Positions 2,978 to 24,536 are shown, counted from the first letter of the stretch. The stretch is DNA of 61,891 bases from a virus (IMGVR_UViG_3300049893_001270:1-61891); one strand, 5' to 3'. The notes: a model not told the origin generated them from the sequence alone. Numbers and translations: made by a program.

Positions 2978-3298
2978 ATGGACAATCAAGCTCTTGTAGA
3001 GTTGCTCATCGAGCTTGTTCTGACCGGGCAAGCCTATGTGGCGGACGTTGTCAGGATCACAGGCATCGAACCACAAACGGTGGCAGCTCACATACGCGGT
3101 AGTGAGTTCATCAAGCTCGTACGCGGGGGCACGTCGCCCAGCTATGGCTACCTCACGATGCGCAACCGTGACGAAGCGTACGCTTTTCCAATCAGGTCCA
3201 TCGTCTACGACTTTTACTTTACGCTTAAACTATCACCGCCTACACCAGACTTCATCGATCTGGTCGTCGAGCACTACCGGATCAGAAAGACGTTCTAA
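2978..3298 (+). CDS. hypothetical protein (possible HTH)
   Basis: 106 aa; stop overlaps the next ATG (TAATG). Confidence 0.55.
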   Translation: MDNQALVELLIELVLTGQAYVADVVRITGIEPQTVAAHIRGSEFIKLVRGGTSPSYGYLTMRNRDEAYAFPIRSIVYDFYFTLKLSPPTPDFIDLVVEHYRIRKTF

Positions 3299-4554
3299 TG
3301 CAATTGAGCCCTGAGAAAAAGCTGGCCGCCGCAAGGTGGCTCGCGCTGAAGAAGATGCCGTACTTCAGCAGCGTGCTTCTCGGCCTGCGCCCTGTGCGCA
3401 TCGAGAACATGAACCCGCCCACGATGGCTGTCACATCCGACGGTCGCTTGCTGTGGTGCGACGAGGATCTCAACAAGTTGAGCGTGGCCGAGGTCGCCGC
3501 CTCGCTTTTGCACGAAGTCGGGCATGTCATTCTGCGGCATCACGACCGCAGAGCAGCCTACGGGGCTGACCCGGCGACGTTCAACATCGCTGGGGACATG
3601 GAGTGGAACGATGATCTGCGCGAAGCAGGTCTGAAAATGTTCACGATGGTGCTCCCCGAGCACGCTGGGTTCCCCGCGGGTAAGACCGCTGAGTGGTACT
3701 ACAACGAGCTCGTGAAGAAAGAGTCGCACGGGGTGCGTCAACCTCACTGCGGCTCTTGCTCTGGGCACAAGCACCCGCAAGAGCCCAACGACGGCGACGG
3801 TGGCGGGCAACCCAACGCGCAGAATCAAGGCGGCAATCAGCCGGACGCCAACGGTCAGAGCAACGCTCCCGCTCCTGGCATGACCAAGAGCGAAATGGAG
3901 TCGATGCTGGCCCAAGCTGCGCGCGACATCAAGGACGCGGCCGAGAAGCGTATCGGGAATGTCCCTGGTGGGCTGGTTCGCTGGGCCGACGCCCAGCTTG
4001 CCCCGCCTGTGGTGGATTGGCGTCGGCAGCTCGCGCAGCACGTCAGGTTCAACCTGCAACGTGCCGAGGGTGAGCACGACCGCACATACGCGAAGCCGCA
4101 CCGACTGCAACCTGCGCTGGGGTACGGCCCCGGTCGCCCGCTGCTCGCTCGTAGCGTTGGGTACAAGCAGCGCATCCTCGTGGCGGTGGATACATCGGGC
4201 TCCATTGGCACCGAGGAGCTCAACCTGTTCATGCCAGAGATCGACGCCGTGCTCCGCGCAGTTAACAGCGAAGTACACTTCGTTTCGTGCGACGCGCGGA
4301 TCAACGACGCGGGTAAGATCAACCACTGGCGCGACGCACTCAAGTTGCTCAAGGGCGGTGGCGGAACGGACTTCAATCCCGTGTTCGAGTACGCGAAGAA
4401 CATGCCCGAGCGACCGACGCTGGTCATCTTCTTCACGGACGGCTATGGCCCTGCGCCGCTCGTCGAGCCGCATGATATGGCGACGATCTGGCTGCTGACC
4501 CCATCGTCCATGCGCCCAGCGAAGTGGGGCACATACATCGACCTCAAGAAGTAG
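3298..4554 (+). CDS. HEXXH metallopeptidase-like + vWA domain protein (DUF2201-like), MoxR partner
   Basis: TMAVT-DG, HEVGH, FNIAGD, Q/N/G-rich linker, MIDAS DTSGS, GGGGTDF, FTDG. Confidence 0.88.
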   Translation: MQLSPEKKLAAARWLALKKMPYFSSVLLGLRPVRIENMNPPTMAVTSDGRLLWCDEDLNKLSVAEVAASLLHEVGHVILRHHDRRAAYGADPATFNIAGDMEWNDDLREAGLKMFTMVLPEHAGFPAGKTAEWYYNELVKKESHGVRQPHCGSCSGHKHPQEPNDGDGGGQPNAQNQGGNQPDANGQSNAPAPGMTKSEMESMLAQAARDIKDAAEKRIGNVPGGLVRWADAQLAPPVVDWRRQLAQHVRFNLQRAEGEHDRTYAKPHRLQPALGYGPGRPLLARSVGYKQRILVAVDTSGSIGTEELNLFMPEIDAVLRAVNSEVHFVSCDARINDAGKINHWRDALKLLKGGGGTDFNPVFEYAKNMPERPTLVIFFTDGYGPAPLVEPHDMATIWLLTPSSMRPAKWGTYIDLKK

Positions 4555-4932: not shown

Positions 4933-5210
4933 CCACGCTGACCTGGGCCGACGCGCTCACCGCGATCAAGTCGCGCTCCAAGTTCATCGAGCGCGTCAAC
5001 GTTCAACACGAGAAGCAGGAACAAGACTCGCACGACATCGAGTCGGCGCTCACGGCCAGCTTGTTCATTGTCTCCGAGCAGATCGGAGCCAGTGAGTACA
5101 CCGTGCATATCGCGATTCAGTCGGATCAGATTCCGTCCGAGTGGGTCGAGCGAATGTTGGGCATCCTCGACTCGGACGAGCTGGTCGAGGCAATCGCGGA
5201 GCTGTTCTGA
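4929..5210 (+). CDS. hypothetical protein
   Basis: GTG start overlapping the previous TGA (GTGA). Confidence 0.6.
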   Translation: MTTLTWADALTAIKSRSKFIERVNVQHEKQEQDSHDIESALTASLFIVSEQIGASEYTVHIAIQSDQIPSEWVERMLGILDSDELVEAIAELF

Positions 5211-5653
5211 TGTACGACGCGGACAAAGCGATCTCGTACTTTATGAGCTACACATGGGTGGTAGCTCAGAGCTTCATCGATCTGCTGGATGACAGCGGTA
5301 AGAACTTCGAGCCGGTCCTCTCGATCACCGATCTTCAAATTGCGCTGCGCAACTGGCGGCAGCAGTTCGTCAAACTGCGCGGTGCGCCCGTCGTAGCGCC
5401 GCTGTTGTTCGTAACGGACATCATCTACATCGATTCTGGGTACAAAACCTACCCAGCGGTTCGCCTCGACGTGACGCAAGCACTGTCGCTGCGCAGGCAC
5501 TCCAAGCAGGACAGCTACTGGCGACCGGCGACGATCACCGAGCGGGCGCACGAGCAGTACATCGAGTCTGTCGCGAAGTATCTTTTCAAGCCTTGTTACG
5601 CCGACATGGTGCGTAACTCGCTCACCTTCAAGCATCTGAACAACACATTTTGA
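5210..5653 (+). CDS. hypothetical protein
   Basis: ATG overlapping the previous stop (TGATG). Confidence 0.55.
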   Translation: MYDADKAISYFMSYTWVVAQSFIDLLDDSGKNFEPVLSITDLQIALRNWRQQFVKLRGAPVVAPLLFVTDIIYIDSGYKTYPAVRLDVTQALSLRRHSKQDSYWRPATITERAHEQYIESVAKYLFKPCYADMVRNSLTFKHLNNTF

Positions 5654-8064: not shown

Positions 8065-8348
8065 CAGAGCCAGAACCCCGCAAACGCGCAGCGTACGTGT
8101 ATCAGCACGACAAGCAGCGCGAGTACGCGATGGTCGGGATGATCCCCGCCATTGCCGTGTGCAAGGCGCTCGGACTGAGCCCGAGCACAGTGAACCGCAA
8201 GCTGGACGCTGGGAAAATCTCTGGTATGAGAGATGGCAAGCGTCGCTTCATCTCCGTGGAGTGGCTGCGCTCCAATTATCCGATTGGGTCGGAGGAGCGA
8301 GCCAAACTCGACATCTTGATTGCGGAGGTGCTCGACGACGCGCTCTAG
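8061..8348 (+). CDS. excisionase/HTH_17-like DNA-binding protein
   Basis: AVCKALGLSPSTVNRKLDAGKI.G...GKRRFI. Confidence 0.65.
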   Translation: MTEPEPRKRAAYVYQHDKQREYAMVGMIPAIAVCKALGLSPSTVNRKLDAGKISGMRDGKRRFISVEWLRSNYPIGSEERAKLDILIAEVLDDAL

Positions 8349-8355
8349 GCGTCGA

Positions 8356-9795
8356 GTGGAAATCGAGCTGACGAACACAGTCGCGCGCGTGGTGAAAAAA
8401 ACAGCGCACGAAGCATCCTGGCTCCACAACTTCCTGACCTACAACGAAAAGAAGAGAACGCAGTTCGGCTTTTCGAGTCAGGCAGTCAGCCTGATGCACA
8501 TGGTAGATCAGACCTTCCCCGCTGGCCTCGTTACGCTGGTGAAGCGCGTAGCCAAGCGGGAGGGGTTCTCGATCGACGTATACGATCACCGAAAGTTCGA
8601 CGTACCGATCAACACGTCGGCCGATCTAGATTGGCTGCGTGACTACCAGATGGAAGCGTTAGAGTGGTGCGTACACGCGAAGCGAGGCATCATTCACGCC
8701 GCCACGGGCAGCGGTAAGACGGAAGTAATCATCGCAGCCACGATGGTGCTGCCGTGTAAATGGCTGGTGCTGGTTCACCGAAAAGAACTGCTGCACCAGT
8801 TCGCTGGCCGCTACAAGACTCGCACGGGGGAGGATTGCGGTGTTTGGGGTGACGGGCAATTCAAGGACGGCAGGGTGATTGTTGCCAGCGTGCAGACGGT
8901 TGCACGCGCGCTCGCCAAACGCGACCCACGCGCAGTCAAGCGTCTCGCGGGCATGAAGGGGCTGATCATCGACGAGTGCCACATCTCGGGCGCTCAGTCT
9001 GTCGTGACGATTGCAAACAACATGCATCAAGCGTCGTACAGGCTTGGGTTCAGCGCGACGCCTCTGGATCGTTCGGATGAAAAGAACCTTCTGGTGATCG
9101 GCGTGATTGGCGAGGTGATTTTTTCGATCAACGCCAAGAAGCTGATCGAGATGGAGGCTATCGCCAAACCGAAGATCCGGCTTGTACGGGCACCGATGTC
9201 TCCCGGCGTGGCAGAGAAGCTGACTGGGTATGGTGACTACGCTGCGACCTACAGACGGCTGATCTCGGGCGGTAAGTACAGGATCGTGACCACGGTTGAG
9301 ACGGTGATGAAAGCCGTGAAGCCGTGCATGGTGTTCGTGAAACTTATCGACCACGGCAAGGCGCTCGCCAAGGCGTTGTGTGAGTCTGGCGCTCGGGCTG
9401 AGTTTGTGTGGGGCGGCAAGAACAGCTACGCGCGCAAAATGGCGATCAAGCGTTTGCGGGACGGCGACATCGACGTGCTGGTCGCGAACGTGATCATGCA
9501 AGAGGGCGTGGACATCCCAGAGCTGATGTCCGTGGTGCTGGCCGACGGCGGCAAGTCTGTGATCGCTTCTGTGCAGTCCACAGGGCGTGGGTCACGCACA
9601 AAGGATCAGCACGGCAATACAATCAAGACCGAGTTCGACGTGTACGACATCGCGGATCGTGACTGCGGATGCCGCTACAAAGATCCATACGGCGGTTGGT
9701 CTTACGCGCACCCGCCGTGCAAGTGGCTCGACAGCCACACACGCAAGCGTATCCAGACCTACAAGCGCGAAGGGTACGAGATCATTGAAGAGTGA
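8356..9795 (+). CDS. superfamily 2 (UvsW/ResIII-like) helicase
   Basis: LRDYQ Q-motif, ATGSGKT, DECH, SAT, EGVDIP, QSTGRGSR. Confidence 0.92.
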   Translation: MEIELTNTVARVVKKTAHEASWLHNFLTYNEKKRTQFGFSSQAVSLMHMVDQTFPAGLVTLVKRVAKREGFSIDVYDHRKFDVPINTSADLDWLRDYQMEALEWCVHAKRGIIHAATGSGKTEVIIAATMVLPCKWLVLVHRKELLHQFAGRYKTRTGEDCGVWGDGQFKDGRVIVASVQTVARALAKRDPRAVKRLAGMKGLIIDECHISGAQSVVTIANNMHQASYRLGFSATPLDRSDEKNLLVIGVIGEVIFSINAKKLIEMEAIAKPKIRLVRAPMSPGVAEKLTGYGDYAATYRRLISGGKYRIVTTVETVMKAVKPCMVFVKLIDHGKALAKALCESGARAEFVWGGKNSYARKMAIKRLRDGDIDVLVANVIMQEGVDIPELMSVVLADGGKSVIASVQSTGRGSRTKDQHGNTIKTEFDVYDIADRDCGCRYKDPYGGWSYAHPPCKWLDSHTRKRIQTYKREGYEIIEE

Positions 9796-10268
9796 TGTTG
9801 AGAAGCTACGTTGAAACACGCTCGCAGATTCTAACAATGCTGGCAGAGCTGACCCGCAGGTTTCAAGAAGAGTACCCCAACGACAACGTCAAGAGCTTCA
9901 TCGTTGGCGGCAACGAACGCTTGGTCATCAGAGGCGCGGCCATCCCGCATACTCGCTACGTTACGTCGGACTTCATTTTCAGCACGCCGTTCGGGATGCT
10001 CAAAGCTGAGTCCCCAAGAAGTGTGTGGGGCGGTACAACGATCGCTGTGGCTGGCCTAGCGAACACAGGCCACCGTAAGCGCCGAGCATTCATGGTCGGG
10101 CTGCCGTACATTCGCGAAGAAGAGCGGGCGATGTTGTACCGTATGCACATCGGGCAAGTAGTACAGACGGAAAACCCCAGCGCAGCGTTTCAAATGGTGC
10201 GCATGGCACGGCAGCTCGGAGAGCACGGCAGTACGCTGTTCACGCTGGAGCGCGCCTTTGCAGAATAA
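9792..10268 (+). CDS. hypothetical protein
   Basis: 158 aa coupled to the helicase stop. Confidence 0.55.
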   Translation: MMLRSYVETRSQILTMLAELTRRFQEEYPNDNVKSFIVGGNERLVIRGAAIPHTRYVTSDFIFSTPFGMLKAESPRSVWGGTTIAVAGLANTGHRKRRAFMVGLPYIREEERAMLYRMHIGQVVQTENPSAAFQMVRMARQLGEHGSTLFTLERAFAE

Positions 10269-10524
10269 CAGCTTGTTGCAGCAAGTCGCAAAAGCCTTGG
10301 CGGCTACCACCCCGCCACACCCCGATATGTTCTATGCGGGTGACACGCTGGTGCACCTGCTGACCAGCCCGATATCGTCGGTTCAGCAGACGCACGACGA
10401 TCTGCTTCGAGTGCGTGCATTCGACGAACTGAAAGATCGAATTCGCGTTGCCGAGTGGCTGGTAGCAGCCGAGCAGGTAGATCGCCGCATCCTGCGCTGG
10501 CTTTACCGAGGGGACTGGTACTGA
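10258..10524 (+). CDS. array micro-protein 1
   Basis: motif MFYAGDTLV; TTG start uncertain. Confidence 0.55.
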   Translation: MQNNSLLQQVAKALAATTPPHPDMFYAGDTLVHLLTSPISSVQQTHDDLLRVRAFDELKDRIRVAEWLVAAEQVDRRILRWLYRGDWY

Positions 10525-10679
10525 TAATCGACAAGCCGGTCAGCCTGTTGTTCGGCTGTGCAGACCGTATGATCTGGGACACCTTTAAAGAGGTGTCGCT
10601 CGGGCATCATGTCTTTCTGAACTACGCGCGCAGACGGCGCTTGTTGTTCGTCAGGCTGAACCATGACCCACCTCGATAA
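10515..10679 (+). CDS. array micro-protein 2
   Basis: motif LFGCADRMI; start uncertain (GTG 10455 or CTG 10515/10521 after GAGGGG). Confidence 0.5.
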   Translation: MVLIIDKPVSLLFGCADRMIWDTFKEVSLGHHVFLNYARRRRLLFVRLNHDPPR

Positions 10680-10848
10680 AAAAGAAGCTGCGTCGCTGTT
10701 CGGGTACATCGACTCGCAAATTGAGTCAGCCATATGTACCCCGTTTCAACGATCATCCACGCGACGATCTAGGGTGATGCCCGAGATCATCAGCACGCTG
10801 GCGTCTGTGCGTGTGCTGCTTCTTTTAGGGTTGGTGTGGCGGCGATGA
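10663..10848 (+). CDS. array micro-protein 3
   Basis: motif LFGYIDSQI; ends GLVWRR. Confidence 0.6.
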   Translation: MTHLDKKEAASLFGYIDSQIESAICTPFQRSSTRRSRVMPEIISTLASVRVLLLLGLVWRR

Positions 10849-11015
10849 GCTCACACAACGATCGCCAATTGATCGACATGATCAAGTCCACACACGCAAG
10901 CATGTTCGAGTTTGCCGATAGCGCGGTCATGGTTGCGATGGATCGCGGCGTGCTGCCCACCGGCATGATGCGGCTACTGAGGCTGTGCGCAGCGGGGTCG
11001 TTGGTATGGCGCTAG
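10845..11015 (+). CDS. array micro-protein 4 (56 aa, below ORF-track cutoff)
   Basis: ATGA overlap; MSSHNDRQLIDMIKSTHASMFEFADSAVMVAM...GSLVWR. Confidence 0.65.
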   Translation: MSSHNDRQLIDMIKSTHASMFEFADSAVMVAMDRGVLPTGMMRLLRLCAAGSLVWR

Positions 11016-11221
11016 CGAAAGGTAACGGTACGGTGAATCACACATATCCGACTACGCCGACCAAGTACGCCACGACCCGGCGCACGATCACTAACATGCG
11101 AGCGTTCGCTGACGCCGCTATCAGCGCCGTGATGAATGCCGTCAATGGCCGAAATGAGGTCGCTCCTGTGGCGATGCGATCCCTCAAGTCGATAGCCTGT
11201 GGGTTACTGGTATGGCGCTAG
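11006..11221 (+). CDS. array micro-protein 5
   Basis: motif MRAFADAAI; ends GLLVWR. Confidence 0.6.
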   Translation: MALAKGNGTVNHTYPTTPTKYATTRRTITNMRAFADAAISAVMNAVNGRNEVAPVAMRSLKSIACGLLVWR

Positions 11222-11409
11222 TATTCGTACCCATCAACGATTTGCACCGCCTTGCAGCGGACGGCATGTATCGTAGGGCTGACGAAACGATCCGCGCGCG
11301 GATTAACCGTGGCCGTCAGGTTTCCTGGCTGGCTCCGTGGGTTGTCATAGGTCGGGCAAGGATCGACGAGCTCATCTGGATGGTGGCGAGTGCGCGATCC
11401 CAACCATAA
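11212..11409 (+). CDS. array micro-protein 6
   Basis: motif MYRRADETI; RARIDELI. Confidence 0.6.
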   Translation: MALVFVPINDLHRLAADGMYRRADETIRARINRGRQVSWLAPWVVIGRARIDELIWMVASARSQP

Positions 11410-11578
11410 TCACGCGTGCGTGTTCGAATTAGCGGACATTGAAGTCTTCGATTTCAACAGCATGTACCGCCCGCCGATCTACTTCTACGCGCACTCTGGA
11501 TTCACTCAGCTTCGTTGGCGGCGGGCGCGTATGCGGGAGCTGCTGATAGCGTTCAACAAAGGCGGCGTGTATGCGTAA
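11390..11578 (+). CDS. array micro-protein 7
   Basis: motif VFELADIEV; RARMRELL. Confidence 0.6.
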   Translation: MRDPNHNHACVFELADIEVFDFNSMYRPPIYFYAHSGFTQLRWRRARMRELLIAFNKGGVYA

Positions 11579-11981
11579 CACCACAATGATGCGCGCGGCT
11601 GACGGGCTGACCGCAGAGGCGGTGTGTGAGCCGCAGCCGCACAGGCACACAACACCCAACCCACCAACGTCGCGGCACAGCAACCTCTCGCGCGGGCCGT
11701 TGATGCGCTCACTGGCAGCGTACAAGACCCTAACCGACCCATCGCGCCTGCCTGCCACAGACGATTGGGTTTATCGGGTGGGCAATTTCCCAGCATGGAA
11801 GCGAGACTTCTACACGCACCTCTGCGCCGTGGCAGCCAACTTCGTAGAGGAGATGCTTTTCACATACGACAGCGCGCGACTGCGGTATCTTCGCCAGCAC
11901 TACAGGATTTTTACGGTCAACAGATCGCGCGAGCTTGACATGGAGTGCAAGCGTCGAGAGGTGCGGTATGGGTACTGGTAA
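11571..11981 (+). CDS. array protein 8 (longer, degenerate motif)
   Basis: MMRAADGLT near the N-terminus; 136 aa. Confidence 0.5.
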   Translation: MRNTTMMRAADGLTAEAVCEPQPHRHTTPNPPTSRHSNLSRGPLMRSLAAYKTLTDPSRLPATDDWVYRVGNFPAWKRDFYTHLCAVAANFVEEMLFTYDSARLRYLRQHYRIFTVNRSRELDMECKRREVRYGYW

Positions 11982-12186
11982 TCGCACGACGTATGTGACG
12001 CTGGACGGGCGCGAGCTTTCGACCCTGTACACGAAGAGCATCCACGAGCTCCTCGTATGTGCAGATGTCTGCGTACTGAGCGCAGCCCGCGGCAGCACGT
12101 ACTGGATGAGCGCCGAGAACAGCGCACGCCGCCAAGCTATCCTCGGGCTGCTGAAGAGGACGCGCGATGACGATTACGATTACTAG
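11968..12186 (+). CDS. array micro-protein 9
   Basis: motif LLVCADVCV(LSAA); GAGG upstream. Confidence 0.6.
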   Translation: MGTGNRTTYVTLDGRELSTLYTKSIHELLVCADVCVLSAARGSTYWMSAENSARRQAILGLLKRTRDDDYDY

Positions 12187-12376
12187 CCAGGACTATGCCC
12201 GCTTTGCGGGCAACATGTGGCGGTATGCGGACACAGTGGTGTTCAACGCTGCGGCGTCCGGCGTAAAAACACGCGCGTCCGTGTTCAACTACTTCGCCAA
12301 TGGGAAAGAGCTAATGGCTGTGCTGTCGGTTATTTTCGATCCTCGAAAAGACAGAGAAAGGGTGGTCGGGCTGTGA
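12167..12376 (+). CDS. array micro-protein 10
   Basis: motif MWRYADTVV(FNAA); GAGGA upstream. Confidence 0.6.
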   Translation: MTITITSQDYARFAGNMWRYADTVVFNAAASGVKTRASVFNYFANGKELMAVLSVIFDPRKDRERVVGL

Positions 12377-12612
12377 AACCGTACAACTTGAACAAGTACA
12401 GCAGCGTTGGGTCGTACCCGTTGTTCATGGCACGGGGTGGCCGTGCCTACTGCATCGACTGCGCGAACGAGGAGCTACCGAGTCCGCACGACGTGATCGA
12501 CGCAAACTGGGAGAACCCAGAATTCTTCTGCGATCAGTGTGACGCCAGGATCGAGTCCGCGTACGCAGAGCACCTACGGGGGTATCATGGCGACCCGCCC
12601 ACCGACGGATAG
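12373..12612 (+). CDS. small CxxC...CxxC zinc-binding phage protein (not an array member)
   Basis: GSYPLF, CIDC, NWE...FCDQC...IESAY; GTGA overlap. Confidence 0.65.
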   Translation: MKPYNLNKYSSVGSYPLFMARGGRAYCIDCANEELPSPHDVIDANWENPEFFCDQCDARIESAYAEHLRGYHGDPPTDG

Positions 12613-12766
12613 CTCGTCGTACTACCTGCACCGCCTAGCAGACGCGATGGTGCGCGTAGTCCTTGTTGTACCGCCTCTCCTAGACGCACCTCGCCTACGC
12701 TCCAAGGATCGGGTTGTCACGTTCAACCGGCTGCTGGACATCTTCACCACGGGGCTAGACGACTGA
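12587..12766 (+). CDS. array micro-protein 11
   Basis: DSSSYYLHRLADAMV. Confidence 0.6.
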   Translation: MATRPPTDSSSYYLHRLADAMVRVVLVVPPLLDAPRLRSKDRVVTFNRLLDIFTTGLDD

Positions 12767-12769
12767 CCG

Positions 12770-12967
12770 ATGATTAGTTCCCTGACACCCACTGACGCAA
12801 TCGACTATGCGTACTTCTGTGCAGATCGATTGATTCCGATCGCCATAACGGAGGGCAGCGTGCGTCTGGCTCGGCATTTAGGTGTGCGGTCGGATTGGCG
12901 AACAGCCTGCTTTCAGACAGTGAGCACACCCGGATCGTACGTGCTCTACCGTTGGATAGACCCATGA
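12770..12967 (+). CDS. array micro-protein 12
   Basis: motif AYFCADRLI. Confidence 0.6.
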   Translation: MISSLTPTDAIDYAYFCADRLIPIAITEGSVRLARHLGVRSDWRTACFQTVSTPGSYVLYRWIDP

Positions 12968-13218
12968 AAGCGCAAATCAAAGAAGTGTTCGCCTTCAGCG
13001 ACGAGCTGCTGTTCTTGTGTACGACTTATAGCGTGACTTGGCGTCGCGGTGTTCGCCCACTACTGATGAACAAACTACGAAAAAGGTTCACGGTCTGCGG
13101 CGTGTACGATTACGCTGACTGGGTCGTCGCAAACTTGCACTCACCCTCTTTCACGAATGGGCGTGATCGTAAATGGTTTACGCGCGTAATGATGCACAGT
13201 CCCTCGCTACACGGGTAG
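12964..13218 (+). CDS. array protein 13 (two motif copies)
   Basis: VFAFSDELL and VYDYADWVV; ATGA overlap. Confidence 0.6.
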   Translation: MKAQIKEVFAFSDELLFLCTTYSVTWRRGVRPLLMNKLRKRFTVCGVYDYADWVVANLHSPSFTNGRDRKWFTRVMMHSPSLHG

Positions 13219-13502
13219 CCCTAGACTACGGGTTGTATAACGACTCCATCGCGATGGTCGTCGCGCTGGGTTTGCGCGGGCGTATGCACCGCCGACATCT
13301 CACGCTCTTGACGCGCCCACCAATGCGCGGGCTGGCAGTGAAATTGCTCTTCTTACTGGCTGACAAATCGGTCAGAAACACGGTGCTGTTTGGCGATATC
13401 ACTACGCGCGCAGCATGGTACATGGCGAACATTTTCCCATCCAGCTACAGAATGGGCGTGCTCAATGAACTCGCTAACAGCGCAATTCAGCTCGACGAGT
13501 GA
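13173..13502 (+). CDS. array protein 14
   Basis: LFLLADKSV plus degenerate YGLYNDSIA. Confidence 0.55.
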   Translation: MVYARNDAQSLATRVALDYGLYNDSIAMVVALGLRGRMHRRHLTLLTRPPMRGLAVKLLFLLADKSVRNTVLFGDITTRAAWYMANIFPSSYRMGVLNELANSAIQLDE

Positions 13503-13650
13503 CTCGTCATACTTCGCGGTGTTCACGGGAGCAGACGCGATGGTGTACTTGGCGATGATGCACTTGACGAGGCTCTCGCAGAACGCGAGCGTACGACTGA
13601 CGCCCAGGCCCATACTCATGGAGCGGCTGAAACTTCGACTGGCCGCGTAG
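13465..13650 (+). CDS. array micro-protein 15
   Basis: SDSSYFAVFTGADAMV. Confidence 0.6.
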   Translation: MNSLTAQFSSTSDSSYFAVFTGADAMVYLAMMHLTRLSQNASVRLTPRPILMERLKLRLAA

Positions 13651-13659
13651 CCAACAGGA

Positions 13660-14370
13660 GTGATCGACGTGTTTCGAGAGCTGCTGGAGTCCCCCGAGGA
13701 TTTCGACGGGGGTGGAGACTTCGTCTGCCCGCCCAACAACATGGCGTCAGTGCTTCGCGCGCTGAACACAGGAGAGTTTCCGCGTGACCCGGCTGACCTT
13801 GTTGTCAGCGTACCGGCTCCTCCGTTTCTGCACGAAGTCTCGCCGTTGTACGAGACGCAAGCGGTGTTTCTAGCGCAAGCGTACGAGCACTATTGCCGCC
13901 ACAAATACGGGCACGTTCCTGCGTGCAAGATCAAGCGTGCGGCGCGAAAGCCGATGCTGATGAGCGCCGCGGCCTTCTTCGTAGCGCACAAGCTCGCCCC
14001 GCATGAATGGTTCGTGTTCATGTCGTTTGTGTGGCACAGCTACATGGATCACCCGGCCAACGAGCCGCCACCGATGCGCATGGTGTTCGACCTCGAACGC
14101 ATCCGAAAGAACCGCGGCTGGTGTCGAAGTGAAACCCGCTTGTTCCCTCAACGGTTGTCGCTTGTCCCCACGGTGGCACATTACCTCGCGGGGTATCTCG
14201 CGTGTTACCGAGCCGCGGAGTCTGGGAGCGTCGCGCGCACACGGTATACGATCGGCCTGTTTTTTCCTAACGGCTGGCAGCGGGTGTATGACACAGCCCT
14301 AGCCGCCGCGACCAAACACAAAGACGAGCTGCTCGCCAAGCGAAACGCTGGTCTTTTTCTCTGGGAGTAA
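13660..14370 (+). CDS. hypothetical protein upstream of the replicative helicase (possible loader/initiator)
   Basis: 236 aa; function inferred from position only. Confidence 0.55.
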   Translation: MIDVFRELLESPEDFDGGGDFVCPPNNMASVLRALNTGEFPRDPADLVVSVPAPPFLHEVSPLYETQAVFLAQAYEHYCRHKYGHVPACKIKRAARKPMLMSAAAFFVAHKLAPHEWFVFMSFVWHSYMDHPANEPPPMRMVFDLERIRKNRGWCRSETRLFPQRLSLVPTVAHYLAGYLACYRAAESGSVARTRYTIGLFFPNGWQRVYDTALAAATKHKDELLAKRNAGLFLWE

Positions 14371-14381
14371 TGGAGCCGTAG

Positions 14382-15719
14382 ATGTCCAGTTACGGAATGG
14401 CGCTGGCGTTTGAGCAAACCGTTGCCTGCATGGCAGCGCAACGCCCAAAGTTCTTTTCAACCGTCGTCGAGTCGATCGACCCTGAGCTGTTCAGCGACAC
14501 GCACGCTCGAACGATCGTGACGGCGGCGCAGCTCATCTACCGCGAGACGGGCAACTGCCCGTCATCCCCCGTCGTGACTGCGCAGCGGCTCGCCCGTATG
14601 CATATCGACGGGAAGCTCACCGAGGCGGCGAAGGACGCCGCTATTGATCTTCTCATCGACTTGGACATCGGCAACATCAAGGACGAGGAGATCATCGATC
14701 AGCTTCGTCCTGTGATGCTGTCGTTCGTGAACAAATCGATTGCGCGTGCAGCCATCGACGCCGTTGGCTCGGGCAACTTCAAGCCGGTTCGCGACGCCAT
14801 CGACATGGCCGACAAGATCGGCCGCATGGACTCGGATCTCGGCGTGTCCGACGATATGGATGTCAACTCTTACATCCGATCGTGCGCTGTGCGCGACAAG
14901 CTGACGACCGGGATAATGGAGCTCGACATTCTCTGCGGTAACGGTGGTACGAACATCGGCACGCTAGAAACGATGGTCGCAAAGACATCGGGCGGAAAGT
15001 CGATGTGGCTCGTGCACCGTGCGAAGCACGCACTGCGTGCTGGTCGTTTCACCGGGATCGTCACGCTGGAGCTCAACCAGGCCAAGTGGCTCGCGCGTCT
15101 GTATGCCAGCTTCACGGGCATCCCGACCAACCTGATTCTGAACGAAACGATGCTGCGCGAGGCGTGCGGAATCATGGAGTCCATCAAGCCAAACATCGCA
15201 CCGTTCGTGTTGAAGTACATGAACCCGGTCAACACCAAGCTCTCTGACATCCAGCAGTGGGTCGAACAGATCGAGCAGCGCCGCGGGCGTAAGATGGACG
15301 TGTTGGTCGTGGACTACCTCGACAAGATCGTCACGGACAGCGACGCGACCGACTACAAAGCTCTCGGTCGCGTGTTCGAGGGTACGCGGGTGTGGATGGA
15401 GGACACGAACCGCTGGGGGATCACCGCGTCGCAGCCCAAGCGCCAGGATGGCAAAAACAGGCTCGCGGTTCTTACCACAGAGGATCTGTCCGACTCGCAG
15501 AACAAAGCCCGCATCGTGGACTACATCTTCACTGCGAACCGCAACGAAGAGAACCACGTCACAATCACCAAGCTGAAAGACCGCCACGACGGCAATGAGG
15601 GCAAGAGCGTCGGCCCGTACCCGTCGAACTTCGCGTGCGCCCAGATCGTGCCCGACAACGCAGCAGTGATGTCGATGGCCGACATGGTCGCCAGGGGCGA
15701 CAATGGGAAACTGGAATAA
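14382..15719 (+). CDS. DnaB-like (SF4) replicative DNA helicase
   Basis: TTGIMELD, Walker A AKTSGGKS, TLE, Walker B VVDYLD, TASQ, KDR. Confidence 0.9.
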   Translation: MSSYGMALAFEQTVACMAAQRPKFFSTVVESIDPELFSDTHARTIVTAAQLIYRETGNCPSSPVVTAQRLARMHIDGKLTEAAKDAAIDLLIDLDIGNIKDEEIIDQLRPVMLSFVNKSIARAAIDAVGSGNFKPVRDAIDMADKIGRMDSDLGVSDDMDVNSYIRSCAVRDKLTTGIMELDILCGNGGTNIGTLETMVAKTSGGKSMWLVHRAKHALRAGRFTGIVTLELNQAKWLARLYASFTGIPTNLILNETMLREACGIMESIKPNIAPFVLKYMNPVNTKLSDIQQWVEQIEQRRGRKMDVLVVDYLDKIVTDSDATDYKALGRVFEGTRVWMEDTNRWGITASQPKRQDGKNRLAVLTTEDLSDSQNKARIVDYIFTANRNEENHVTITKLKDRHDGNEGKSVGPYPSNFACAQIVPDNAAVMSMADMVARGDNGKLE

Positions 15720-20033: not shown

Positions 20034-20106
20034 GAGACGCTAACTCAATTGGTAGAGTACCCGGCTTTTAACCGGAGTGTTCGGGGTTCGACCCCCCGGC
20101 GTCTCA
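20034..20106 (+). tRNA. tRNA-Lys (UUU)
   Basis: GAGACGC/GCGTCTC acceptor, ACTC/GAGT D-stem, loop CTTTTAA, CGGGG-TTCGACC-CCCCG; CCA not encoded. Confidence 0.92.
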
Positions 20107-20121
20107 CTCCCTGGTGAATTC

Positions 20122-24049: not shown

Positions 24050-24080
24050 CACACTGGCGTGGTCAAACCACGCCAGCCAC

Positions 24081-24155
24081 GCCAAAGTAGCTCAGTGGAA
24101 GAGCACCCGATTTGTAATCGGGCGGTCGCGAGTTCGATGCTCGTCTTTGGCTCCA
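24081..24155 (+). tRNA. tRNA-Thr (UGU)
   Basis: GCCAAAG/CTTTGGC acceptor, GCTC/GAGC, CCCGA-TTTGTAA-TCGGG, T-loop TTCGATG, encoded CCA. Confidence 0.93.
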
Positions 24156-24323
24156 AGGGTGTTGAACCACTCTACCAACGGACAACATATCATCCGTTGG
24201 TATGGATTGCGGCCCTTATCCTGCGCGAGTCCGCAAGTCAAATGAGCCCTAGCCTCACCGAATGGGGCGATCTGAAGACTCTAAAGAGATACAGCTCGCG
24301 CGGGGCTAATTTACACTACGACC

Positions 24324-24536
24324 ATGCGAAACATTCAAGGCGTTGCGTTCGCCACGGGTAACGGTGGCTTTTTCCTTCACCTCTGGGCGTCGAGCAGCAT
24401 CGACGTTGATATTTTCACGCAAAACCGATCGGCGTTTGCCCAAGCCGCTCTTTCGTGGATGATGGGGTCGCAGACGCCTATGTGGGGTCTGCTGGACCCG
24501 ATCGAAACACCACTCGAAAGGATGCCTTCGCTGTGA
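24324..24536 (+). CDS. hypothetical protein
   Basis: 70 aa; GTGA coupling to the next ORF. Confidence 0.45.
   Translation: MRNIQGVAFATGNGGFFLHLWASSSIDVDIFTQNRSAFAQAALSWMMGSQTPMWGLLDPIETPLERMPSL

Follow-up and report, generated by a model that had tools for sequence, protein, structure and literature searches.

An array of small tandem genes, most of which carry one common nine-residue motif, is described here from the + strand of the virus record IMGVR_UViG_3300049893_001270, where it extends from position 10258 to position 13650; the whole record (an IMG/VR entry of 61,891 bases, completeness rated about 70%) was analysed and is referred to below as the window. Sixteen overlapping or abutting open reading frames (ORFs) of 59-136 residues occupy the region, and 14 of these hold 16 copies of the motif, which can be written as hydrophobic-aromatic-x-hydrophobic-A-D-x-x-V/I. 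The observation of a motif-sharing array is confirmed, its ORFs are protein-coding and under purifying selection, and very probably they make up a real selected gene family. The reading preferred here, with a probability of about 0.4, is that of a diverged tandem paralog family of small helical proteins in which a constant helix would dock on a common partner.

All of the 16 peptides listed by the first-pass annotation, which had been made from the DNA sequence alone, were found where it had placed them, each on the + strand and in frame with its ORF (Table 1). The head-to-tail overlap or abutment, the switching of frame and the use of all three stop codons that it had described were likewise found: the reading frame differs across 14 of the 15 junctions, the stops are TGA (6), TAG (6) and TAA (4), and the spacing of the units is roughly regular, at 117-245 nucleotides (nt) for most of them. 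Its statement that nearly every ORF carries the motif stood for 14 of the 16 ORFs and did not extend to the zinc-ribbon ORF at 12376-12612, from which the motif is absent, or to the 136-residue ORF, which is probably not a member.

The motif enrichment implied by that annotation was above the shuffled and the other-ORF controls by Gibbs sampling, and was upheld by leave-one-out scoring and by density. In the 3.4-kb region the strict pattern [MLVIFA]xxxADxx[VILMT] had 13 matches on the three + frames and 3 on the three - frames, with 21 in the other 58.5 kb, and a narrower pattern was matched 13 times inside and 5 times outside the region. Because the pattern had been chosen after the data were seen, leave-one-out scoring was used, in which the best score of each ORF was compared with those of 205 length-matched chunks of other genes; 13 of 15 ORFs reached a best score matched by at most 3.4% of the chunks. 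A Gibbs sampler supplied with no motif refound the segment in 12 of the 16 ORFs, with an information content of 13.08; 8 shuffles gave 11.31 +/- 0.26, and 6 random sets, each of 16 other small ORFs, gave 11.66 +/- 0.22. Full-matrix matches of at least 9 bits occurred at 4.7 per kb inside the region (the matrix being trained on these copies), at 0.19 per kb over the remaining window sequence and at 0.18 per kb in 536,710 bases from 34 distant relatives. These relatives (DnaB 24-36% identical) were used for control counts and for comparing gene order, and were not treated as orthologous arrays. The best motif-like match in a called gene outside the array was LMYDADKAI (5207-5233, +, 11.1 bits), located 22 residues from the N-terminus of a 170-residue orphan (ORF 5141-5653) and within the chance rate of 0.19 per kb.

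Coding of the array was supported by codon statistics and by variants from other samples. GC content at third codon positions tracks the successive ORF frames, and codon-usage log-odds trained on the long genes were positive in 14 of the 15 post-motif segments, at 0.40 bit per codon compared with 0.68 for the long genes, and amounted to 0.59 bit per codon in the pre-motif segments (from the previous stop to the motif). Six array ORFs are independent gene calls in a public protein collection, each of them a singleton found on this contig only. Contigs of 151-284 nt from an aquatic run (X2), two wastewater runs (X3 and X4) and a sediment run (X5) were 89-100% identical to parts of the array, the parts left uncovered in these runs being no evidence of absence. 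The term hypervariable, used in the first-pass annotation, was thus found to be apt for the paralogs among themselves and not for the population. With the best gene models, and with the zinc-ribbon/m12 overlap left out, at least 26 codons were changed in the X2-X4 contigs, 11 of them non-synonymously among the differences listed, where 70-74% would be expected under random change (P 0.0006-0.003). Five of the listed differences fall inside motifs, four being synonymous and one changing Arg to Met at a variable position; in m09 of run X4 all five listed differences are synonymous, three of them inside its weak motif. No indels are listed in any of the X-run contigs. The earlier argument for protein-level selection is borne out by these changes, and the synonymous variation of the Ala-Asp codons from which it had started is real (GCA 5, GCT 5, GCG 3 and GCC 1; GAC 13 and GAT 3).

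Likeness among the members is concentrated in the motif. Pairwise significance was reached only by m04 and m05 (BLASTP E 1.8e-5), and the C-terminus LVWR is common to m03, m04 and m05. Leave-one-out hidden Markov models (HMMs) gave positive scores for 15 of 15 units, and after removal of the nine motif columns the signal was gone in 14 of 15, so that the detectable similarity is confined to the motif. The earlier picture of a tandem paralog-like library, with one constant helix segment in otherwise unrelated sequence, was upheld by leave-one-out scoring, by the Gibbs sampler and by these motif-removed HMMs. The hydrophobic positions of the motif (1, 2, 4, 5, 8 and 9) span a single 160-degree arc of a helical wheel, on one helix face as had been proposed, with the invariant Asp at the edge of the arc. 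With the 15 units supplied as an alignment, AlphaFold2 modelled the 45-residue m04 unit (10878-11012) as a two-helix hairpin (residues 3-23 and 27-43), in which the motif lies in helix 1, within the best-scored block, with a predicted local distance difference test (pLDDT) value of 81. Helix 2 is not co-conserved, because the motif-less leave-one-out HMMs find nothing in 14 of 15 units. The model of the two-unit ORF m14 was all-helical, with a mean pLDDT (54) too low for judging the packing of the units, and a homodimer prediction for the 45-residue m04 unit scored 0.01 against a mark of 0.42, which speaks neither for nor against binding. Net charge was +1 to +7 in 12 of the 15 gene models, and no convincing membrane segment was found in any member. 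The motif stands 0-40 residues from the N-terminus (0-58 codons from the candidate starts) and is followed by 28-56 residues in the 15 units; it is concluded to be N-proximal but internal.

A change of the array by one whole unit was found between samples, in line with the accordion-like behaviour suggested by the first-pass annotation. A 21-nt stop/start junction is present twice, 206 nt apart, with 14 nt common at the m05 joint. A contig of run X3 (depth 3.4) joins 11001 to 11208 within these 14 shared bases, 206 nt being skipped, with m05 exactly absent and m04 and m06 intact, and a contig of run X5 spans m05 unchanged. Since 14 bases are fewer than the 31-letter words sampled by the run index, an assembly artefact seems unlikely. 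The position of the joint at the junction repeat indicates that recombination at the gene junctions adds whole genes to the array or removes them. The two-unit m14 fits the same unit-wise recombination, and pairs of motif copies have remained identical at 16 of 16 and at 15 of 18 bases (repeat families D9 and D7, respectively). Another joint was seen in run X2, from 10833 to 10893 with 59 nt replaced by 3, which would fuse m03 to m04 in frame; its support is a single contig (depth 3.5) that diverges after a 33-nt side, and the joint, which may reflect a genuine variant, a different paralog or a chimera, was not relied on.

Table 1. Array members, junction repeats and neighbouring genes of the window. 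Lengths are in residues; the control fraction is the share of the 205 length-matched chunks of other genes reaching the best score of the ORF in leave-one-out scoring.
Feature	Position	Strand	Length	Motif copy and position	Control fraction	Remarks
helicase	8320-9795	+				replication-gene block
158-residue orphan ORF	9792-10268	+	158			upstream flank; stop overlaps m01 start by 11 nt
m01	10258-10524	+	88	MFYAGDTLV 10327-10353	0.010	from TTG 10258; database gene call begins at ATG 10327 (65 residues), exactly at the motif
m02	10455-10679	+		LFGCADRMI 10548-10574	0.000	start uncertain, GTG 10455 or TTG 10548
m03	10663-10848	+	61	LFGYIDSQI 10696-10722	0.034	C-terminus LVWRR
m04	10836-11015	+	59	MFEFADSAV 10902-10928		C-terminus LVWR
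junction repeat copy 1	10995-11015	+				m04 end (LVWR, stop) overlapping an ATG; repeat family D2
m05	11006-11221	+	71	MRAFADAAI 11096-11122		from ATG 11006 (longest ORF from 10985); C-terminus LVWR
junction repeat copy 2	11201-11221	+				m05 end overlapping m06 start; 86% identical to copy 1
m06	11212-11409	+	65	MYRRADETI 11266-11292	0.010	
m07	11390-11578	+	62	VFELADIEV 11420-11446	0.020	
136-residue ORF	11571-11981	+	136	MMRAADGLT 11586-11612, at chance level	0.122	coding score +57 bits
m09	11968-12186	+	72	LLVCADVCV 12049-12075, weak copy	0.161	from ATG 11968; GAGGTG upstream
m10	12167-12376	+	69	MWRYADTVV 12215-12241	0.015	GAGGA upstream
zinc-ribbon ORF	12376-12612	+		absent		CxxC...CxxC; acidic; start uncertain
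m12	12587-12766	+	59	LHRLADAMV 12626-12652	0.005	from ATG 12587
m13	12770-12967	+	65	AYFCADRLI 12809-12835	0.015	weakest coding signal of the array
m14	12895-13218	+		VFAFSDELL 12985-13011; VYDYADWVV 13102-13128		two units in one ORF, motifs 39 residues apart; start uncertain (12895, 12952 or 12964)
m15	13254-13502	+	82	LFLLADKSV 13347-13373	0.029	length by database gene call (longest ORF from 13173)
m16	13465-13650	+	61	VFTGADAMV 13519-13545	0.010	from ATG 13465
236-residue ORF	13660-14370	+	236			downstream flank; linked to the large ORF of relatives by tblastn and phmmer
DnaB-type helicase	14382-15719	+				replication-gene block

Two of the longest-ORF starts were ruled out by variants. A variant of run X3 destroys GTG 12539, which is therefore not the start of m12; those at 13457 and 13460 leave the m15 protein unchanged and would alter residues of an extended m16 frame, and a start of m16 before 13460 was ruled out. 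As for the two ORFs without a proper motif copy, the 136-residue ORF was not recovered by the family HMM. The zinc-ribbon ORF matched phrog_18452 (labelled 'DNA ligase') with E 1.8e-8 and zf-dskA_traR with E 0.008, the latter below the Pfam cut-off, and is outside the family. It has an isoelectric point of 4.5 and a net charge of -8 within an otherwise basic array, and on account of this opposite charge is a candidate partner.

The family, which the first-pass annotation had not recognised, has no detectable relatives in the collections searched. The members matched nothing in PHROGs, Pfam and PDB (best E in the PDB profile search 0.44), the array matched no Rfam entry, and only unnamed look-alike clusters were obtained from the Atlas, with a score of 0.91 and low feature overlap. 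A 15-unit profile run against 1.84 billion representative proteins gave 6 matches, all from this window. With the family HMM, nothing below E 0.22 was found among 8,571 ORFs outside the training set, and the similar arrays that had been thought worth seeking in this way were absent from the 34 distant relatives. Full-text searching of one literature collection returned no description of a motif-sharing array of small genes. The family and its arrangement are apparently new, having been seen so far only in this phage and, as near-identical pieces, in four other runs that belong to three further studies.

On the + strand, up to about 36 kb, the window carries replication genes (primase, MoxR-type ATPase, DUF2201/VWA-like protein, helicase, DnaB-type helicase, DNA polymerase, SSB and SbcC-like), and on the - strand, from about 36 kb, structural genes of a contractile-tail type (baseplate wedge, tape measure and major head protein), the record ending at the major head protein. 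The array sits in the replication-gene block between the helicase and DnaB. Searches of the region at the DNA level, in near and distant modes against 50,697 phage records, returned nothing, and the closest DnaB among 5.8 billion proteins was 32-34% identical; judged by these comparisons, the phage is without a close relative, and the 34 fetched loci count as distant for the same reason of DnaB identity. No PHROG or Pfam match was obtained for the 158-residue or the 236-residue ORF, and a single-protein scan of viral_contigs gave no relative of either.

The gene order MoxR, VWA, helicase, DnaB, primase is maintained in the 34 distant relatives, most of which have a single ORF of 410-760 residues between helicase and DnaB. 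The C-terminal 200 residues of this large ORF match the 236-residue ORF of the window, which is a stand-alone C-terminal module, as it is also in relatives L016, L021 and L028; the 158-residue orphan and the array occupy the place of the relatives' N-terminal module. Winged-helix matches below the Pfam cut-offs were obtained for the N-terminal part of the large ORF in one of the seven proteins scanned, and no trace of that domain was found in the window by phmmer with single sequences and with a profile. The array as a remnant of the N-terminal domain was accordingly rejected. No motif enrichment was found in the relatives' large ORF (4 matches of at least 8 bits in 7,570 residues).

Several other features of the replication side were noted. 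The primase (603-1442) lies about 13 kb upstream of DnaB in the window, ahead of MoxR, and directly after DnaB in relatives L002-L028, a place taken by other ORFs in the window; the displacement reflects either a rearrangement or a different permutation of the record. The MoxR-type ATPase (phrog_1297, 1697-2917, +) stands beside a protein (3298-4554, +) with DUF2201_N (putative metallopeptidase) and DUF2201 (VWA-like) domains. The distant relatives have retained both genes, and the PHROGs label 'HNH endonuclease' on the DUF2201 protein is unsupported by its Pfam domains. Genes for tRNA-Lys(TTT) and tRNA-Thr(TGT) are located at 20034-20107 (+) and 24081-24155 (+), respectively, the latter under an ORF (24059-24361) whose coding signal is near nil, at 0.04 bit per codon.

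On the preferred reading, the approximately 14 small genes (roughly 45-90 residues, mostly basic and predicted to be helical) would have arisen from repeated duplication of a unit through unequal recombination, and the old copies would have diverged until only the nine-residue segment was common to them. In the first predicted helix, the conserved segment would form the hydrophobic face, bordered by the invariant Asp, and a second helix would follow. Promoter-like sites in the array were not above shuffles (1 versus 2.1 +/- 1.4), and the terminator-like sites (9 versus 4.0 +/- 2.3 in shuffles) lie inside ORFs on both strands, none of them convincing. Because the genes stand head to tail and without gaps inside the replication block, with no such promoter-like or convincing terminator-like sites, they are probably made together with the replication proteins. 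Each micro-protein would dock via its constant helix on one common partner, of the host or of the phage, and the variable remainder could give each copy a different second specificity. In that case the array might supply a set of small adaptors, decoys or inhibitors acting in host takeover or counter-defence, and would grow and shrink by units. A bolder version, which we regard as speculative and rather unlikely, may be called 'one socket, many plugs': about 14 micro-adaptors would put the same Ala-Asp helix into one hub, either a host hub or the phage replication loader, with different tails. The repertoire would then be expandable against many host factors, and populations may differ in the plugs that they carry.

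The main rival to docking, possible though on the doubtful side, keeps the same family and takes the motif as only the fold core of a minimal helical hairpin, each paralog having an unrelated target; the small Ala would permit close helix packing and the Asp would be a helix cap or part of a salt bridge. Ala and hydrophobic residues are typical of packing, and the conserved Ala and hydrophobic positions, which form the hydrophobic face of helix 1 in the model, would also be retained by a core that does no more than pack helices. The Asp could find its counterpart in a weak Arg-ending block after the motif (...SLVWR, ...QLRWR, ...NASVR), for which a gapless search of the post-motif parts gave an information content of 10.39 versus 9.65 +/- 0.16 in 12 shuffles, partly driven by m03-m05. 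A two-helix core, however, should pattern both helices, and helix 2 is without detectable conservation in 14 of 15 units; moreover, the invariant residue is charged and lies at the edge of the face, not in it. From the lack of co-conservation in helix 2 and the charge of the sole invariant residue we favour docking over a fold core. The core-like residues and the Arg-ending block count against docking nonetheless, and to them must be added a series of other observations: two of the members first listed (11571-11981 and 11935-12186) are at chance in leave-one-out scoring (12% and 16%, respectively); the post-motif coding score of m13 is -1.9 bits; the composition (Arg 10.7%, Leu 10.6%) leans towards that of random ORFs of GC-rich DNA; the polymorphisms, among the differences listed, rest on single contigs of depth 2-5; the mean pLDDT is only 69 for the m04 hairpin model and 54 for the m14 model; no comparable array occurs in the 34 distant relatives, with a maximum of 4 pattern matches per 3.5 kb versus 13 here; and the codon oddities set out below hint at an extra constraint at the nucleotide level, outside the docking reading.

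Other readings of the motif are less probable. The boldest takes it for a targeting or processing signal, comparable to T4's capsid targeting sequence, by which the proteins would be loaded into the prohead, perhaps cut near the Ala-Asp, and injected with the DNA against host defences. This we consider improbable. Only a short N-proximal segment is common and the rest is diverse, most members are basic, the length after the motif (28-56 residues) is more uniform than that before it (0-58 codons), and the phage has a structural module of the contractile-tail type. In T4, however, the capsid targeting signal forms the extreme N-terminus and is cut off by the prohead protease, and the array motif does not have this terminal position: the pre-motif segments are coding (0.59 bit per codon), good Shine-Dalgarno sequences precede starts 13-27 codons upstream of the motif in m09, m10 and m12, and m01 is the sole member with a gene call beginning at the motif. 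In addition, the array is in the replication block, on the strand opposite to the structural genes, and in the window, which ends at the major head protein, neither a prohead protease nor a scaffold gene is present for comparison. Precursors of modified peptides, with the motif as a leader for one modifying enzyme and the variable tails as cores, would likewise have a constant N-proximal segment, variable C-terminal parts and many adjacent small genes. We hold this reading to be very improbable, since the flanking 158-residue and 236-residue ORFs and the embedded ORFs match no modifying-enzyme or leader-recognition family, the 236-residue ORF occurs also in relatives without the array, and Cys, Ser and Thr are at background level (1.3, 6.9 and 6.8% in the array versus 1.0, 7.0 and 6.9%, respectively).

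It is still harder to credit that the ORFs are not separately functional and derive by frameshifts from one decayed gene, whether a long repeat protein or the missing N-terminal half of the 236-residue gene. The frame changes at 14 of 15 junctions, the roughly regular spacing of the units, the Arg- and Leu-rich composition and the large ORF of 410-760 residues in the same slot of the relatives, of which the window keeps the C-terminal half, would all agree with decay. The first-pass annotation had itself named a frameshift-decayed repeat gene as a case that would overturn its view, and the evidence went the other way: codon usage is of the coding type in each successive frame, synonymous differences are in excess, the stop/start junction was duplicated as a unit, and no indels are listed in the X-run contigs; furthermore, the relatives' N-terminal domain matches nothing in the window and left no remnant there, their large ORF being dissimilar to the array. 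Equally hard to credit is an element at the DNA or RNA level, such as an internal start signal or a binding site, with the likeness of the peptides as a by-product. Its case is made by codon oddities: 13 of 16 copies open with an NTG codon (expected 0.43, P 0.002), GTG being used for each of the four Val residues, and 11 of 16 open with ATG, GTG or TTG (expected 0.29, P 0.001); GCA or GCT, with A or T as third base, encodes the Ala of 10 of 14 copies (expected 0.32, P 0.003); and the database gene call of m01 starts at the motif. Conservation, however, is at codon positions 1 and 2 and third positions vary, no Shine-Dalgarno-like sequence precedes the motif codons, the sequence upstream is coding in frame, and neither an Rfam match nor an excess of promoter-like sites over shuffles was obtained. 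The codon bias at the motif possibly reflects internal starts or a preference for Met. The motif as a general protein N-terminus was rejected, the segments from the previous stop to the motif being coding in frame.

Several known systems resemble the array in part. The early regions of SPO1 or T4 are dense runs of small orphan genes for host takeover, and to our knowledge these have no common motif or paralogy. HEAT, TPR or Sel1-like repeats are helical-hairpin units of about 40-60 residues with a short pattern in the first helix; unlike in proteins of that kind, the array units are separate ORFs with their own stops and changing frames, and they have no Pfam repeat match. Multi-precursor loci for modified peptides, for example of the prochlorosin type, consist of adjacent small genes with a constant N-proximal part and variable C-terminal parts, and the array differs from them in having no adjacent modifying-enzyme match, no enrichment of Cys, Ser or Thr, and tails that are predicted to be helical. 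The internal proteins of T4 are described, in a review, as highly diverse defence proteins with the capsid targeting sequence as their sole common element (PMC3012670). The likeness is that IPI, IPII, IPIII and their variants are small, often basic and otherwise unrelated, with one short N-proximal peptide (PMC3012670). The array differs in that its motif is inside a helix, 0-40 residues in, and in that about 14 copies stand in one array in the replication block; no sequence similarity of the members to T4 internal proteins was found in PHROG, Pfam and PDB searches. For T4 tifA, a small counter-defence gene, copy number was reported to change by recombination between short repeats (PMC9391042), and in the array one unit is similarly present or absent between samples, at the 14-nt junction repeat. 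The T4 copies are recent, identical and laboratory-selected, whereas the array copies are old and have nine residues in common. The closest of these systems are analogues by function and not by homology.

Phage genomes abound in small orphan genes, most of which defy grouping or assignment of function. Here a single nine-residue helix motif under selection links about 14 such genes, and a binder of the motif helix could explain the whole block. If the motif is the core of a fold only, the array shows how far the tandem paralogs of a phage diverge with all copies under selection. Should the helix serve all members for docking or targeting, it would be a possible portable tag and the array an example of tiny-effector repertoires reshuffled by whole-unit recombination; and if 'one socket, many plugs' is true, it would represent a new organisational principle for phage counter-defence.

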